Below the pieces are notes generated by a model. It worked only from the letters and a program-made list of their open reading frames with translations, made no database searches and was not told the origin of the DNA. From NCBI GenBank assembly GCA_044359815.1, contig JBIKLL010000060.1, forward strand, positions 1 to 17,690: DNA of 17,690 bases. The letters are read 5' to 3'. The DNA comes from Pseudobdellovibrionaceae bacterium (lineage in GTDB: Bacteria > Bdellovibrionota > Bdellovibrionia > Bdellovibrionales > Bdellovibrionaceae). Positions 1,947 through 17,589 of this stretch are shown one piece after another; position 1 is the first letter of the stretch, and every line of letters begins with the position of its first letter. Position numbers and translations under genes: made by a program.

Positions 1947-1956
1947 AGATCACCTG

Positions 1957-2142
1957 ACGGTTTAGGATTCGGTCTTCCCACAAATGCGCATCACGCGCAT
2001 TTGTCCCAGAGCCGGGGCCGATCGCTAGAGTAGGGAGTACAGGATTGTCTCGGGCTCCTGCCCTCGCCCCCTTCGGGGTTTCACGCAAAAATAGCATAGT
2101 GCTATTTTTGCCGAACAAAGGTTCAAATCTGACTCTCTACCA
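1957..2142 (-). repeat. tRNA-Val 3'-end-derived repeat/hairpin array (att-like)
   Basis: 2030-2046 is a 17/17 copy of tRNA 2179-2195. 2120-2142 is a degenerate inverted copy of the tRNA 3' end. A short AGGATTC remnant lies at 1964-1970. Perfect hairpins at 1980-2004 (10 bp) and 2085-2111 (12 bp). Confidence 0.85.
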
Positions 2143-2145
2143 AAC

Positions 2146-2172
2146 TAAAAAACCACCTTTCGGTGGTTATTT
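2146..2172 (-). terminator. Intrinsic terminator after tRNA-Val
   Basis: Minus strand AACCACC-GAAA-GGTGGTT followed by a T run. Confidence 0.85.
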
Positions 2173-2176
2173 ACTT

Positions 2177-2252
2177 TGGTAGGGAGTACAGGATTCGAAC
2201 CTGCGACATCCACCTTGTAAGGGTGGCGCTCTACCAACTGAGCTAACTCCCT
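2177..2252 (-). tRNA. tRNA-Val (anticodon TAC), CCA encoded
   Basis: Reverse complement AGGGAGTTAGCTCAGTTGGTAGAGCGCCACCCTTACAAGGTGGATGTCGCAGGTTCGAATCCTGTACTCCCTACCA: 76 nt, canonical cloverleaf. Confidence 0.98.
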
Positions 2253-6998: not shown

Positions 6999-7025
6999 AG
7001 GACAAGGGTTTATACCACTTTATAA

Positions 7026-7064
7026 AGTGCTGCCACCTTTAAGTACATTGATGATGGATTTTGA
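7026..7064. repeat. 39-bp perfect direct repeat of the mglA 3' end (displaced copy)
   Basis: AGTGCTGCCACCTTTAAGTACATTGATGATGGATTTTGA is identical to 8327-8365; 43/45 when extended through the stop codon (7020-7064 vs 8321-8365). Confidence 0.97.
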
Positions 7065-7175: not shown

Positions 7176-8318
7176 ATGGAAAGATATCTACATTCCCGTG
7201 TTTTAAAAGACCTCGGTTCTAAAATGGTCTTCATTAGCGGGCCCAGGCAGTGTGGCAAGACAACCTTTGCCCAAGAACTATTGAAGGCTTCAAAATCTGG
7301 CAGGTATCTCAATTGGGACTCAAAAGACGACAGAAAAACAATTTTGGATTCTAGCTGGGTTGATCAAGATAATCTAATCGTTCTGGATGAGATCCACAAA
7401 TATCAAAAGTGGAAGAATCTTATTAAGGGAATCTATGACACACAAAAAAAGATTCATCAGTTTTTGATCACCGGAAGTGCGCTTTTAGATGTTTACAGAA
7501 AAGGTCAGGATTCTTTGTTCGGCAGGTATCACCATTGGCGCCTGCATCCCTTTTGTTTGGCAGAAAATCCTTTGCAGGATGATCCCAGTCAGGTTTTGGA
7601 AAGACTTATTGAAAGGGGCGGCTTTCCTGAACCTTTTTTGGCAGAGTCTGCAGTCGATGCCAAAAGATGGGCAAAGTCGCATATGGATTTATTGATTAAA
7701 GAAGACCTTCGAGACTTAAGCTTTATCAAGGATCTGACAGCTATCGAGCAACTGTATGAGGGGCTTCGGGCTAGGGTAGGGTCCATAATTTCGAATGCCA
7801 ATATTGCTAGGGATATCGAGGTCGCCCCAAAGACCGTGAAACAATGGATCGCAATCTTGGAAAGCCTTTACATTATATTTTCCATAAAACCATATTCCGG
7901 AAAAATGATTCGTGCTTTGACAAAGCCTTCCAAAATTTATGTTTTCAATAATCCAGAAGTTGATGGAGATGAAGGTGCAAAGTTTGAAAATCTGGTAGCT
8001 ACGCATTTGCTGAAGAGAGTTCATTTTCTAGAAGATTCAATGGGTGAAAAATTTGAACTCAGTTATTTGCGCGACAAAGAAGGCCGAGAAGTTGATTTTG
8101 TGATTCTAAAATCAAAAAAACCAATTTGCCTGATAGAGGCAAAATACAACTCAGATCAGCCATCTGGTCATTTAAACTATTTTGGCGATAAGCTGAAAAT
8201 TGCAAAGCGAATACAGTTAGTACAAAAATTAAAAAAATCTTCCAAATTAAAAAACATTGAAATAATTCCGGCGGCACAATTTTTAAGTAAGCCACTGGAT
8301 CAAAACATCTTCGAATAA
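7176..8318 (+). CDS. AAA+ ATPase (AAA_14) with DUF4143 region: winged HTH and C-terminal PD-(D/E)XK-like motif
   Basis: Walker A GPRQCGKT, Walker B LIVLDE, ITGS, GGFPE, HTH-like NIARDIEVAPKTVKQWIAILE, FENLV, EVDFV..IEAK. Confidence 0.92.
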   Translation: MERYLHSRVLKDLGSKMVFISGPRQCGKTTFAQELLKASKSGRYLNWDSKDDRKTILDSSWVDQDNLIVLDEIHKYQKWKNLIKGIYDTQKKIHQFLITGSALLDVYRKGQDSLFGRYHHWRLHPFCLAENPLQDDPSQVLERLIERGGFPEPFLAESAVDAKRWAKSHMDLLIKEDLRDLSFIKDLTAIEQLYEGLRARVGSIISNANIARDIEVAPKTVKQWIAILESLYIIFSIKPYSGKMIRALTKPSKIYVFNNPEVDGDEGAKFENLVATHLLKRVHFLEDSMGEKFELSYLRDKEGREVDFVILKSKKPICLIEAKYNSDQPSGHLNYFGDKLKIAKRIQLVQKLKKSSKLKNIEIIPAAQFLSKPLDQNIFE

Positions 8319-8320
8319 GA

Positions 8321-8911
8321 TTAAAGAGTGCTGCCACCTTTAAGTACATTGATGATGGATTTTGAAACTGTTTTTAATGAATCCATTACTCCGCGGCCCT
8401 CTGATGCCGTGGCCTCAAAGTCAGGTGCGTTGTATTTGTTAAGCTGTGCTCTTAGCTCAGAAAGCTTTAAAGCATTTGGCAAATCCCGTTTGTTGTATTG
8501 AAGCACAACAGGGATTTCTTTGATGTCATAACCTTGAGTTTCCAGATTGCGTTCCAGGTTTCTGAGCGATAACAGATTTTCCTCCATCCGCTCGGCCTGT
8601 GAATCTGCAACAAACACCACACCATCAAGGCCTTTTAAAATTAATTTTCGGCTGGCATCGTAAACCACTTGGCCAGGCACGGTGTACAGATGAAACCGCG
8701 TCTTAAAGCCCCTGATGCTACCCAGATCAATCGGCAAAAAATCAAAAAACAAAGTGCGTTCAATGTCGGTGTTCAGTGTGATTAAATCGCTTTTTTCGCC
8801 ATTGGTTTGTTGAAACACCCAACGGATGTTTGTGGTTTTACCACTCAGTGAAGGACCGTAGTAAACGATCTTGCAGTGGATTTCTTTGGCGTTGTAGTTA
8901 ATAAATGACAT
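8321..8911 (-). CDS. mglA: Ras-like small GTPase MglA
   Basis: MSFINY..KIVYYGPSLSGKTTN, RTLFFDF, TVPGQV, NKRD; start overlaps the recR stop (TAATG). Confidence 0.97.
   Translation of the reverse strand: MSFINYNAKEIHCKIVYYGPSLSGKTTNIRWVFQQTNGEKSDLITLNTDIERTLFFDFLPIDLGSIRGFKTRFHLYTVPGQVVYDASRKLILKGLDGVVFVADSQAERMEENLLSLRNLERNLETQGYDIKEIPVVLQYNKRDLPNALKLSELRAQLNKYNAPDFEATASEGRGVMDSLKTVSKSIINVLKGGSTL
8327..8365. repeat. 39-bp direct repeat, copy within mglA
   Basis: Identical to 7026-7064. Confidence 0.97.
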
Positions 8912-15468: not shown

Positions 15469-15813
15469 GGGGGTGACCTGGTTTCGACGTGGGAACAGAA
15501 GCTTGAGGAGCATTCCGGGGCGCATGGGGACCTCGTTAAAAACGTGCATCTTGTAATTGACAACAATTACGCACTTGCAGCCTAACCGCTAGCACGAAAT
15601 TATTTGTTGTGGTCGCGGACTTATAATTTCGTCATTTAGTGACCTCGATCTTGCGTGCTTTCTGCAGGCGTAAGATTTAAAAAATTCTGTGGGAAGGGTA
15701 GTTTTGATTTCGTCTGTAGAAGCTAAGCTATCAATTTAAATTGCAGACTAAGAATGTAGCGCCTCAACGTGGATGTCTTACGGACGGGGGTTCGATTCCC
15801 CCCACCTCCACCA
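15469..15813 (+). ncRNA. ssrA: tmRNA, tag peptide (A)DNNYALAA
   Basis: 5' GGGGGTG..GGTTTCGAC pairs with 3' CACCTCC-ACCA with a G3:U pair; T-arm GGGGGTTCGATTCCCCC; tag frame GAC AAC AAT TAC GCA CTT GCA GCC TAA at 15559-15585. Confidence 0.97.
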
Positions 15814-15845: not shown

Positions 15846-15984
15846 TGGTGGATGGATGAAGGGAATCGAACTATTCTCGAGCCGGGGTTCGACTCGAAGG
15901 CCACGATGGCCGGAGAGCGCGTAGCCCTGAGCTTCGCTGAGGGTGAGTGCCGTGACGGCACGAGCATTCCCCCCACCTCAACCA
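15846..15984 (+). repeat. tmRNA 3'-end-derived repeat/hairpin element (att-like)
   Basis: Inverted degenerate copy at 15846-15871; GGGGTTCG at 15884-15891; GC-rich hairpins at 15892-15965; direct copy 15966-15984 (18/19 to 15795-15813). Confidence 0.88.
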
Positions 15985-16219: not shown

Positions 16220-17371
16220 ATGAAAAAAATGATCGTTGTTATATCTCTGGTTATCACGAGCGCCTGCTCTAAAAGCAGTGACACGACTTCTGCTGCGGCC
16301 ACATTGGATACATCCATTACTGGTGTCATCTCCACCGCAACCGAAAAAATCACAGAGGGAATTCCAGGAGGAGATGTTTTGGCGTCTTCGGTTTCGACCT
16401 TAGGTGATATCGGTGCTGGCTATGGGAGCACAGATATTCAAATATTCGGATCTGGCTACTTCAACACTCCACAAACCTTCGTGCAATACTTGCTGAACAA
16501 AGCAGAAGATCTGGATCCAGGGGATGGAATGGGTTTGATCAATCGTTTTAAACAAAAGATTGTCAGCGGAATGTGTCCAATTATTGGACTGCATCCCGAT
16601 GCAAATTCAGATGGGATTCCCGACATTGGATCGGGTACCTTTGTTCTTCCTAACTTTTCGGACTCAACAGTTGCGGCTTCAATTGTTGCGAAATGTCCAG
16701 GAGCCAACGCAGCAAGCCTGAACGGCGCCTCAGGAGTAACAATCGGCTATGCGGTCACCGACGTCAGCGCTCTGGCGGGTTCAGAGTATTCCATTAAATC
16801 CGTGATCGATTTTGGTAATAATGGATCCACTGATAATATTCTTTATTACAAAGCGGATGGCAGTGTAATTCGCTTTGCATTTGTCGAGGTTGATACTTCT
16901 ATTATTGAGAGTGCTGCCTTATTTGAATTCGATGGAACTACATTAAGGTTTGATTTCCACGGCGGAGGGCAGGATGGCCACTATCGCATGCTGTATGACG
17001 GTTCAACTCGTGATATTTCACTTTATGGAATGGTGAAGAAAGATGCATCAAACAAGGTTTATATGTCGATGGTCGGAAATCGAAAAGAATCCCTAGCTGC
17101 TGTTACGTTGTCTGCCTTGAAAGCAAACGTAGCGGTTGTTTCAAATGGTCAAGCTTGCGTTACCGTCACTGGCGACACCTTTCCCTGGGACTCGAATTTC
17201 TCTTCGGGTGCCTGCGGAACTATTGTTGGATCTGATTTCGCCACCGCGCCGGCTGTTGCTGCACTTTCTGACGGATTTGATGGGTCATTGAATGTCAGTG
17301 TGTTTGATCACACGGATAAGATTCTTTTTTCGACACCAGCAACTGTGCTGACCAGCGCGATTATTCAGTAA
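16220..17371 (+). CDS. Hypothetical lipoprotein (383 aa)
   Basis: MKK + hydrophobic stretch + lipobox-like TSAC (Cys16), Ser/Thr-rich tether, beta-rich body; SD AGGGG. Confidence 0.85.
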   Translation: MKKMIVVISLVITSACSKSSDTTSAAATLDTSITGVISTATEKITEGIPGGDVLASSVSTLGDIGAGYGSTDIQIFGSGYFNTPQTFVQYLLNKAEDLDPGDGMGLINRFKQKIVSGMCPIIGLHPDANSDGIPDIGSGTFVLPNFSDSTVAASIVAKCPGANAASLNGASGVTIGYAVTDVSALAGSEYSIKSVIDFGNNGSTDNILYYKADGSVIRFAFVEVDTSIIESAALFEFDGTTLRFDFHGGGQDGHYRMLYDGSTRDISLYGMVKKDASNKVYMSMVGNRKESLAAVTLSALKANVAVVSNGQACVTVTGDTFPWDSNFSSGACGTIVGSDFATAPAVAALSDGFDGSLNVSVFDHTDKILFSTPATVLTSAIIQ

Positions 17372-17475: not shown

Positions 17476-17589
17476 GGAGATCCGTCGCTGAGATTGAGGC
17501 GGCATTCCCCCCACCGAACGTTGCCGGCTCTGGAAGCGAAGTGAGCGTGAAGCGAACTTGAGCGAGAAGACCTATTCCCTCCACCGAGC
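17476..17589 (+). repeat. Two further tmRNA T-loop/acceptor fragments with an intervening module
   Basis: GCATTCCCCCCACC 17502-17515 (14/14 to 15964-15977); ATTCCCTCCACC 17574-17585 (11/12); TCGCTGAG 17485-17492 matches 15934-15941. Confidence 0.8.

Follow-up and report, generated by a model that had tools for sequence, protein, structure and literature searches.

Gene-less T-loop inserts with a conserved five-helix core behind tRNA and tmRNA genes of Bdellovibrionota

Background

Genes for transfer RNA (tRNA) and transfer-messenger RNA (tmRNA) are the classic landing sites of genomic islands and prophages, and gene fragments adjacent to them are usually read as plain scars. Williams in 2002 reportedly defined sublocation classes of integration within tRNA genes. 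Related segments, the cis-mobilizable elements (CIMEs), have flanking repeats of the attachment (att) type and no recombination genes, and their movement is presumed to occur in trans; their definition rests on the att sites of a known parent element within the same host. Folded single strands serve as recombination substrates in the attC sites of integrons and in attP(+) of phage CTX. For islands in tRNA genes (tDNA islands), a regenerated gene together with a displaced fragment is the hallmark, as outlined in PMC4383910, and a T-loop attB is known for mycobacteriophage Ms6, as summarized in PMC1762012. The present study concerns a stretch of 17,690 nucleotides (nt), the whole of contig JBIKLL010000060.1 (C59; the window), from the draft genome of a Pseudobdellovibrionaceae bacterium (2.95 Mb, 125 contigs, 91% complete). 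Arrays of gene fragments behind its tRNA-Val and tmRNA genes each hold a copy of a short sequence, Module B, and what would be taken for a scar here holds a conserved five-helix fold with exact T-loop borders, gene-less, maintained and exchanged across the phylum.

Like tRNA/tmRNA islands, these inserts lie in the 3' part of a gene that is restored while its old fragment is displaced, have their junction in the T-loop and form serial arrays. Unlike such islands, the Bdellovibrionota insert measures 200–250 base pairs (bp), carries neither integrase nor cargo, and adds an inverted copy of the target together with a 130-nt core that is under selection for a single-strand fold. With CIMEs it shares att-type flanking repeats, the lack of recombination genes and the presumed movement in trans, but no parent is known, and a conserved fold stands behind many different tRNA genes. 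The attC sites and attP(+) of CTX resemble it in their short conserved boxes, freely varying stems and inverted site copies that pair into a substrate, and they offer the nearest mechanistic analogy; however, the insert has no GTTRRRY/RYYYAAC boxes and no dif-like arms, and its target is the T-loop of a tRNA. It also differs from integron attC sites in that no IntI gene is present and the element ends read TTCGAA and GACC, followed by GA(A/G)TCC. Literature searches, at the level of listings and the opening lines of abstracts, yielded no description of such an element.

Results and discussion

Module B and its recurrence

A preliminary description, made from the window alone, had listed two copies of Module B, and every string and coordinate given for them is present in the sequence. 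Copy 1, on the minus strand, reads CCGGCTCTGG (2015–2006), GCGTGATGCG (1996–1987), GAAGACC (1977–1971) and then GAATCC, with GCGTGATGCG forming the tip of a perfect 10-bp hairpin (ACAAATGCGC/GCGCATTTGT). Copy 2, on the plus strand, reads CCGGCTCTGG (17524–17533), GCGTGAAGCG (17545–17554), GAAGACC (17566–17572) and then TATTCC. The reported spacing (38 and 42 nt) holds if it is measured from the start of the first block (box 1) to the start of GAAGACC (box 3), and each copy has the orientation of its neighboring gene, tRNA-Val at 2177–2252 on the minus strand and tmRNA at 15469–15813 on the plus strand. The pattern CCGGCTCTGG-N20-45-GAAGACC matched twice in the window against a mean of 0.00 in 200 dinucleotide-preserving shuffles, none of which reached two matches, so that the recurrence exceeds chance. 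Throughout the genome the exact pattern matched eight times, and the reversed pattern, used as a control, did not match at all. A pattern search of the genome, the order and the phylum, as had been proposed, showed that the motif adjoins tDNA fragments and that its placement is not random.

Other parts of the preliminary description needed revision. Its middle block, GCGTGAWGCG, had been taken for a conserved box; it is the tip of a hairpin (P3i) in some copies, and the stem of this hairpin differs in almost every copy. The single nucleotide that had been regarded as a spacer between GAAGACC and the T-loop fragment is indeed there, but it is T-loop position 57 itself and not a separate spacer, because the right border is in register with C56: position 57 is a G, mutated to T at 17573, and the last C of GAAGACC coincides with C56. 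Module B had further been proposed to be a conserved recombinase-binding or end sequence. It is an end sequence that abuts the start of the displaced fragment; its boxes base-pair with each other, however, and are not independent linear protein sites. Recombinase binding stays an inference, because no recombinase adjoins any copy and the genome has only two tyrosine recombinases, both of Xer size.

Fold of the core

Module B forms the stem-loop domain at the 3' end of a non-coding core of about 125–135 nt with five helices. Upstream of it lie some 85 more nucleotides with conserved boxes and two further variable hairpins. Domain 1 opens with a conserved GAGAG, and helix P0 then pairs nucleotides 5–10 with the linker, closing a three-way junction that carries hairpins P1 and P2. 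P0 reads, for example, GCAAUC/GAUUGC, GCAACU/AGUUGC, GCACGC/GCGUGC or GCCGAC/GUCGGC, and in other copies GAGAGC/GCGAAC with tandem G.A. In domain 2, which is Module B, box 1 (GG-c-UCU) pairs with box 3 (AGACC), and within this helix lie an internal loop rich in purines and the variable hairpin P3i; in full, CCGGCUCUGG pairs with GAAGACC around a freely co-varying inner hairpin.

Compensatory changes were found at three of the five pairs between box 1 and box 3. GG/CC is replaced by GU/AC in three copies (two distinct), and UCU/AGA by UCC/GGA in two copies and by UGC/GCA in one; variant 3' domains retain the helix as GGCCAU/AUGGCC, GGCUAC/GUAGCC or GGUCU/AGACC. A mini-hairpin within CCGGCUCUGG, proposed by RNAalifold, was replaced by the box1:box3 helix because only the latter accounts for the GU/AC and UGC/GCA changes. 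P3i has a median z of -5.3 against shuffles (27/42 copies matching the type-I pattern). The covariance model was built from eight copies, five of this genome and three of relatives. In an alignment of 41 copies, which was fitted to P1 and P2 and is therefore biased towards them, 90.3% of pairing cells were paired against 66.6% after shuffling (0 of 500 shuffles reached the observed value), 31 of the 33 pairs showed changes on both sides, and structures slid by 1–3 columns paired at only 33–40%. P0 paired at 71% and the box1:box3 helix at 94–98%, though neither was part of the search model.

AGGAG, AGGAU or UGGAU forms the loop of P1, of P2 and often of P3. Most loops of P1 and P2 thus carry GGA, but those of P3 do so in some copies only; a protein-sponge RNA of the Csr/Rsm type would present GGA in several hairpin loops. 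Two other readings were discarded, namely base pairs between the 5' GAGAG and the CUCU of box 1, for which the alignment as read shows no covariation, and a small peptide behind the AGGAG of P1, for which the sequences, read by eye, show no conserved frame. No Rfam family covers the element in the window at the gathering threshold, and five full copies searched at E values up to 5 returned palindrome-type microRNA noise only; known ribozyme folds were discarded for the same five copies, which no Rfam ribozyme model matched.

The pairs of the sense strand include 89 G.U against 18 A.C, with only 3 A.C within P1 and P2, and the predicted folds favour this strand over its complement, under RNA parameters in 37 of 39 copies and under DNA parameters in all 39. 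Because of this G.U excess and this greater stability, the folded molecule has the sense of the tRNA. RNA and folded single-stranded DNA both fit these data.

Borders, insertion and turnover

Read in the orientation of the gene, a full locus consists of a gene that ends in segment A, a terminator or AT-rich spacer, A', the core, and a second, direct A. Segment A runs from T-loop position 56/57 to CCA, A' is the inverted A and ends in TTCGAA, and the core ends in ...GACC; the insert comprises about 200–250 bp without genes. In 24 of the 29 loci fetched from relatives and from this genome, a tRNA or tmRNA gene on the same strand (Ala, Gln, Leu, Arg, Pro, Phe, Asn, Met or tmRNA) ends 58–159 nt upstream of the core; the remaining five lie at contig ends or behind other inserted DNA. 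A' matched the end of its own gene at 14 or more of 22 positions in 21/24 loci compared with 64/494 mismatched controls, and A did so in 14/24 loci compared with 94/494 controls. The right border is exactly in register with C56 in 17/24 loci and the left border with T54 in 16/24, and most borders out of register are off by a single base at the ends of model matches. The block of identity begins at C56/G57 in 17/24 loci, although sequence does not show where the crossover itself took place.

An empty and a filled site could be compared at tRNA-Gln. What directly follows tRNA-Gln in genome G116 is the homologue of the flank that in G092 comes only after the second A, and both spacer and A' are absent from the empty site. 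Since these flanks are homologous, the piece consisting of A, spacer, A' and core is the part inserted at T-loop position 56/57. As in tRNA/tmRNA islands, the target gene is regenerated and its displaced 3' fragment lies at the far end. Insertion is further supported by a perfect 62-nt duplication of A plus terminator on contig C76 of this genome and by near-identical cores behind tRNA-Leu and tRNA-Phe in G055; G132 holds a deletion derivative.

At the seven tRNA-Gln loci, the spacer and the two domains are found in changing combinations. One pair of loci with flanks 98% and spacer 97% identical has domains only 72% and 66% alike, while another pair, with flanks 69% and spacer 40% identical, has domains that agree at 95% and 100%, and four species share an identical domain 2. 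A' in these loci remains nearly complementary to the real end of the tRNA, in contrast to the downstream A, which has decayed to 7–14 of 22 matches in five of the seven.

Copies in this genome and in relatives

The covariance model detected ten copies of the core in this genome, including copies behind tRNA-Leu(GAG) and tRNA-Arg(TCT); the two window copies scored 42 and 25 bits. Three copies lie at contig ends, where the flanking fragments match the 3' ends of tRNA-Leu(TAG), tRNA-Arg(ACG) and tRNA-Met(CAT), genes that sit at the ends of other contigs. Because of these matches, all ten copies can be assigned to nine tRNA or tmRNA genes. The contigs C29 and C75 have their first 98 nt or so in common, a stretch that lies immediately ahead of an element copy; the assembly probably broke here at a collapsed repeat.

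With stricter filters and in samples of genomes, the model gave hits in 26 of the 151 genomes searched from the order (7 of 13 taxonomic families) and in 15 of the 151 drawn from the phylum, three families from other orders among them. A scan of one genome per species with the exact pattern plus a T-loop tail gave 24 loci, of which 13 were real by the model, all of them labelled Bdellovibrionota or an unclassified 'Proteobacteria' metagenome-assembled genome; the other 11, from other phyla, did not match it. One genus, called the tRNA-Gln genus below, has the core behind tRNA-Gln in 7 of 17 sampled species. Several genomes hold multiple copies (G041 six, G055 five, G180 five), and tandem arrays have a period of 217 on contig C69 and of 199 in G180. 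Two copies in G041, 4.2 kb apart, represent a segmental duplication without a recombinase.

In this genome, a direct 3'-end copy (at least 14/16, a threshold without a separate control) occurs within 400 nt downstream of 11 of 34 tRNA and tmRNA genes, and seven further such loci, when inspected, showed other hairpin-rich cores built with the same logic.

The two arrays of the window

The features of the two arrays are as follows, the first array on the minus strand and the second on the plus strand.

2177–2252, minus strand: tRNA-Val(TAC), the gene ahead of the first array (ARAGORN; Rfam tRNA, 75.8 bits)
2151–2168, minus strand: terminator hairpin t (CCACC-GAAA-GGTGG) after tRNA-Val, 82% alike to the terminator after tmRNA
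2120–2142, minus strand: A', an inverted and diverged copy of the tRNA-Val segment from T-loop to CCA (TGGTAGAGAGTCAGATTTGAACC in gene orientation; by sequence)
2047–2119, minus strand: core of a second element family with three hairpins and the end ...GGGCAGGAGCCCGAGAC; the unit nearest the tRNA
2030–2046, minus strand: displaced direct 3' fragment of tRNA-Val (AATCCTGTACTCCCTAC; 15/16 match)
2016–2029, minus strand: linker (TCTAGCGATCGGCC), the 3' strand of P0, whose 5' partner is missing together with P1 and P2 (by alignment to full copies)
1971–2015, minus strand: Module B copy 1, with box 1 at 2006–2015, P3i at 1978–2005 and box 3 (GAAGACC) at 1971–1977; box 1 and box 3 paired
1953–1970, minus strand: the oldest of the displaced T-loop fragments (GAATCCTAAACCGTCAGG), with decay past the T arm (by sequence)
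15469–15813, plus strand: tmRNA gene, tag DNNYALAA
15822–15837, plus strand: terminator hairpin after tmRNA
15846–15871, plus strand: A', an inverted copy of the tmRNA 3' end (TGGTGGATGGATGAAGGGAATCGAAC)
15872–15965, plus strand: core of a related but different family, with a P2-like GGCC-ACGAT-GGCC, a GTGCC-GTGA-CGGCAC hairpin and the end GAGC
15966–15984, plus strand: displaced direct 3' fragment of tmRNA (ATTCCCCCCACCTCAACCA; 14/16 match)
16220–17371, plus strand: open reading frame (ORF) of 383 amino acids between tmRNA fragments, without a Pfam match
17504–17515, plus strand: displaced 12-nt tmRNA fragment (ATTCCCCCCACC)
17516–17523, plus strand: linker GAACGTTG, the 3' strand of P0, like that of the full copy on contig C29
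17524–17572, plus strand: Module B copy 2, with box 1 at 17524–17533, an inner hairpin with tandem G.A at 17534–17565 and box 3 at 17566–17572
17573–17589, plus strand: oldest displaced tmRNA fragment (TATTCCCTCCACCGAGC)

In each array the unit proximal to the gene is complete, but it belongs to another core family, and the Module B unit lies further out. Both Module B units are 5'-truncated relics that consist of linker and domain 2 only and follow an A fragment of 12 or 17 nt. The core at 2047–2119 has relatives behind other tRNAs of the same genome, and the ORF of 383 amino acids is possibly the cargo of another inserted unit. A contig of read-set X3 at locus L019 joins the 3' 60 nt of the core to a tRNA-Gln end via 54 other letters; it is a short variant that retains only Module B, like the window relics.

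Search for an enzyme, a parent element and a transcript

The distance of 58–159 nt between gene and core leaves no room for an ORF, and the insert therefore carries no integrase; the ORFs of the window likewise include no integrase or recombinase. A third tyrosine recombinase was not found in this genome, at 91% completeness, and neither was an RVT_1 match (reverse transcriptase), as would mark a retron. Matches to Y1_Tnp number 9 in this genome, 17 in G041, 7 in G146, 1 in G180 and 0 in G055, so that four of the five multi-copy genomes have them. Paralogues of about 211 amino acids resembling Y1 (HUH) transposases lie on contigs C8, C23, C47, C48, C49, C56, C100 and C125; they are 80–85% alike over the ORF only, and some adjoin short tandem repeats.

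An autonomous parent with the same att sites was not found in the viral loci fetched, in phages or in plasmids. The pattern alone matched at least 120 loci of viral contigs, 80 of which were fetched; these gave one model match (23 bits), inside coding-like GC-rich DNA without a tRNA, none of them holds the element, and no hairpin-positive match had a T-loop fragment after it. The phage and plasmid collections gave no blastn match. The sole link to integrases is found in G308, where two 200-nt copies of the unit flank a decayed 4.8-kb island with a truncated Phage_integrase ORF. This island (in locus L200, positions 1–7000 of contig C45 of G308) encodes a DUF4236 protein, the integrase remnant of 95 amino acids and an AAA_15/AAA_21 ATPase, and its right end is a hairpin of inverted and direct copies of the tRNA-Gln acceptor end without a core between them. 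Upstream of the copy at L028, at a contig end, lies an ORF with weak helix-turn-helix and Recombinase matches. An HNH_3 ORF upstream at L044 was considered as a gene of the element and discarded, being part of a different unit with its own T-arm-like end.

A metatranscriptome contig at a depth of 2.2 covers 67 nt of the 3' half of the core; the other runs are probably DNA.

Mode of movement and alternative explanations

The results define, on direct evidence, a conserved, modular, gene-less family of T-loop inserts in Bdellovibrionota, to which the Module B core belongs. The insert brings a fresh A, which keeps the tRNA or tmRNA intact, and the old 3' segment of the gene is displaced downstream; repeated insertions build up arrays in which units are older the further they lie from the gene. 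How the family moves, and whether its fold acts as RNA or as DNA, can be approached by inference only. The explanation towards which we lean, with moderate confidence, is that the insert is a non-autonomous cassette, moved as a folded strand by an enzyme encoded elsewhere. This enzyme would recognize the folded sense strand and carry out a site-specific exchange in the T-loop. The A'/A stem may act as a duplex copy of the target, from whose T-loop end the two structured domains would branch, and the box1:box3 helix, ending at the junction, would fix the position of the crossover. Modules (spacer, domain 1 and domain 2) would be swapped between lineages. It is possible, as a tentative extension, that these inserts represent an undescribed class of protein-less mobile cassettes, in which the inverted target copy pairs with the direct copy and the core docks a host or passing enzyme, or in which the core RNA joins in the insertion; in that same tentative reading they might be the tRNA-gene counterpart of integron attC sites.

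Several observations weigh against movement of the cassette as a folded strand. No recombinase was found beside any copy in this genome or in relatives. The two tyrosine recombinases of this genome (Phage_integrase; 312 and 324 amino acids) have the size of Xer proteins and lie outside the window, and the three to six of the multi-copy genomes are not adjacent to copies either, the three of G041 not even nearby. No excised form, circle or single-stranded intermediate was seen. A simple crossover in the T-loop leaves the match of A and A' to each new target gene unexplained, and the truncation of both window relics at the same structural point, just before the linker, is likewise unaccounted for. 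The tRNA-Gln genus keeps core and A' while the downstream A decays, which fits a selected RNA or host function equally well. Covariation with many G.U pairs is, moreover, a hallmark of functional RNA, and the data do not distinguish RNA from folded DNA.

An alternative is that the core is primarily a structured small-RNA gene, transcribed with or behind the tRNA and released by tRNA-processing enzymes via the minihelix-like A'/A stem. The RNA would then be the functional product, possibly sequestering a protein via GGA-type loops or playing a role in tRNA 3' processing, and the DNA would spread only secondarily, carried along by ordinary islands at tRNA sites or by way of homologous recombination within the conserved tRNA gene. 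Five co-varying helices with G.U far above A.C on the sense strand speak for it, as do unpaired boxes that are identical across families of the order, a core 95–100% conserved between species of the tRNA-Gln genus whose spacer is 40% alike, and an A' that is still complementary to the real tRNA end there. The AGGAG, AGGAU or UGGAU loops of P1, P2 and often P3 would suit it too, and GNRA tetraloops take the place of the P1 tip in some copies; but GGA loops are not universal, those of P3 often being UUGAU or GUGAA. Many copies, however, have a strong terminator between tRNA and core, no promoter-like site was called ahead of the window copies, and the trace of expression is a single 67-nt piece on one metatranscriptome contig of depth 2. 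A small RNA also leaves unexplained the bracketing by inverted and direct copies of the gene 3' end, the stacking into arrays and the presence of ten copies behind nine genes, and we consider this alternative rather unlikely.

Two alternatives retain a DNA-level role with a different enzyme. Module B could be a double-stranded arm-type or end site bound by the integrase of a tRNA-site island, its copies being ordinary scars of attR ends. It does always adjoin the displaced fragment, which is the position of an island end; DNA bearing an integrase or HNH gene uses the same tRNA-Gln T-loop site; and a regenerated gene with a displaced fragment is the tDNA-island signature as outlined in PMC4383910. 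Duplex protein sites, however, show neither compensatory changes nor a strand-specific G.U excess, an inverted A' is not explained by arm-type sites, the units are gene-less at 200–250 bp, and the integrases of the genome are limited to the two of Xer size, all of which makes a duplex site improbable. The insert could otherwise be a non-autonomous relative of IS200/IS605, whose single-stranded DNA a Y1 (HUH) transposase would recognize by its subterminal hairpins and join 3' of a short target word in the T-loop. Strand-specific folding and a terminal hairpin that ends 7–9 nt ahead of the right end agree with this, and a paralogous Y1_Tnp family is present in this genome, G041 and G146; yet G055 has five core copies with no Y1_Tnp match and G180 five copies with one, and the Y1 genes, alike over their ORF only, share no common ends and are not near the elements. 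Known insertion of this type proceeds without duplication of 20 nt or more of the target, direct or inverted, whereas about 20 to 62 nt are duplicated here, and a relationship to IS200/IS605 is accordingly very improbable.

If the cassette is moved as a folded strand, it would join the few recombination systems known to recognize structure rather than sequence; as an RNA, it would represent a new and conserved class linked to tRNA loci. In both cases it offers a testable object of about 130 nt with clear compensatory mutations and with cultivable Bdellovibrio at hand, and it cautions against annotating such arrays as mere debris of integrases.

Further observations

Other core families occupy the same position as the Module B core, at 2047–2119 and 15872–15965 of the window and on contigs C33, C55, C122, C21, C84, C30 and C27; one of these families ends in ...GGGC-AGGAG-GCCC-GAGNC just before the displaced fragment. 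On C30, C84, C122, C75, C107 and C38 and at L018, the 'terminator' between gene and A' is a long AT-rich palindrome with a conserved GC-rich centre (...CTTGCGACGT...CACGCCTCAGTCGC...), which looks like a separate recurring module.

Elsewhere in the window, a 45-nt direct repeat (7020–7064 and 8321–8365; 96% alike) brackets an AAA_14/DUF4143 ATPase gene (7176–8318). The second copy of the repeat overlaps the 3' end of a small GTPase-like gene (8321–8911), an arrangement that resembles a gene inserted into the end of another gene with that end restored.
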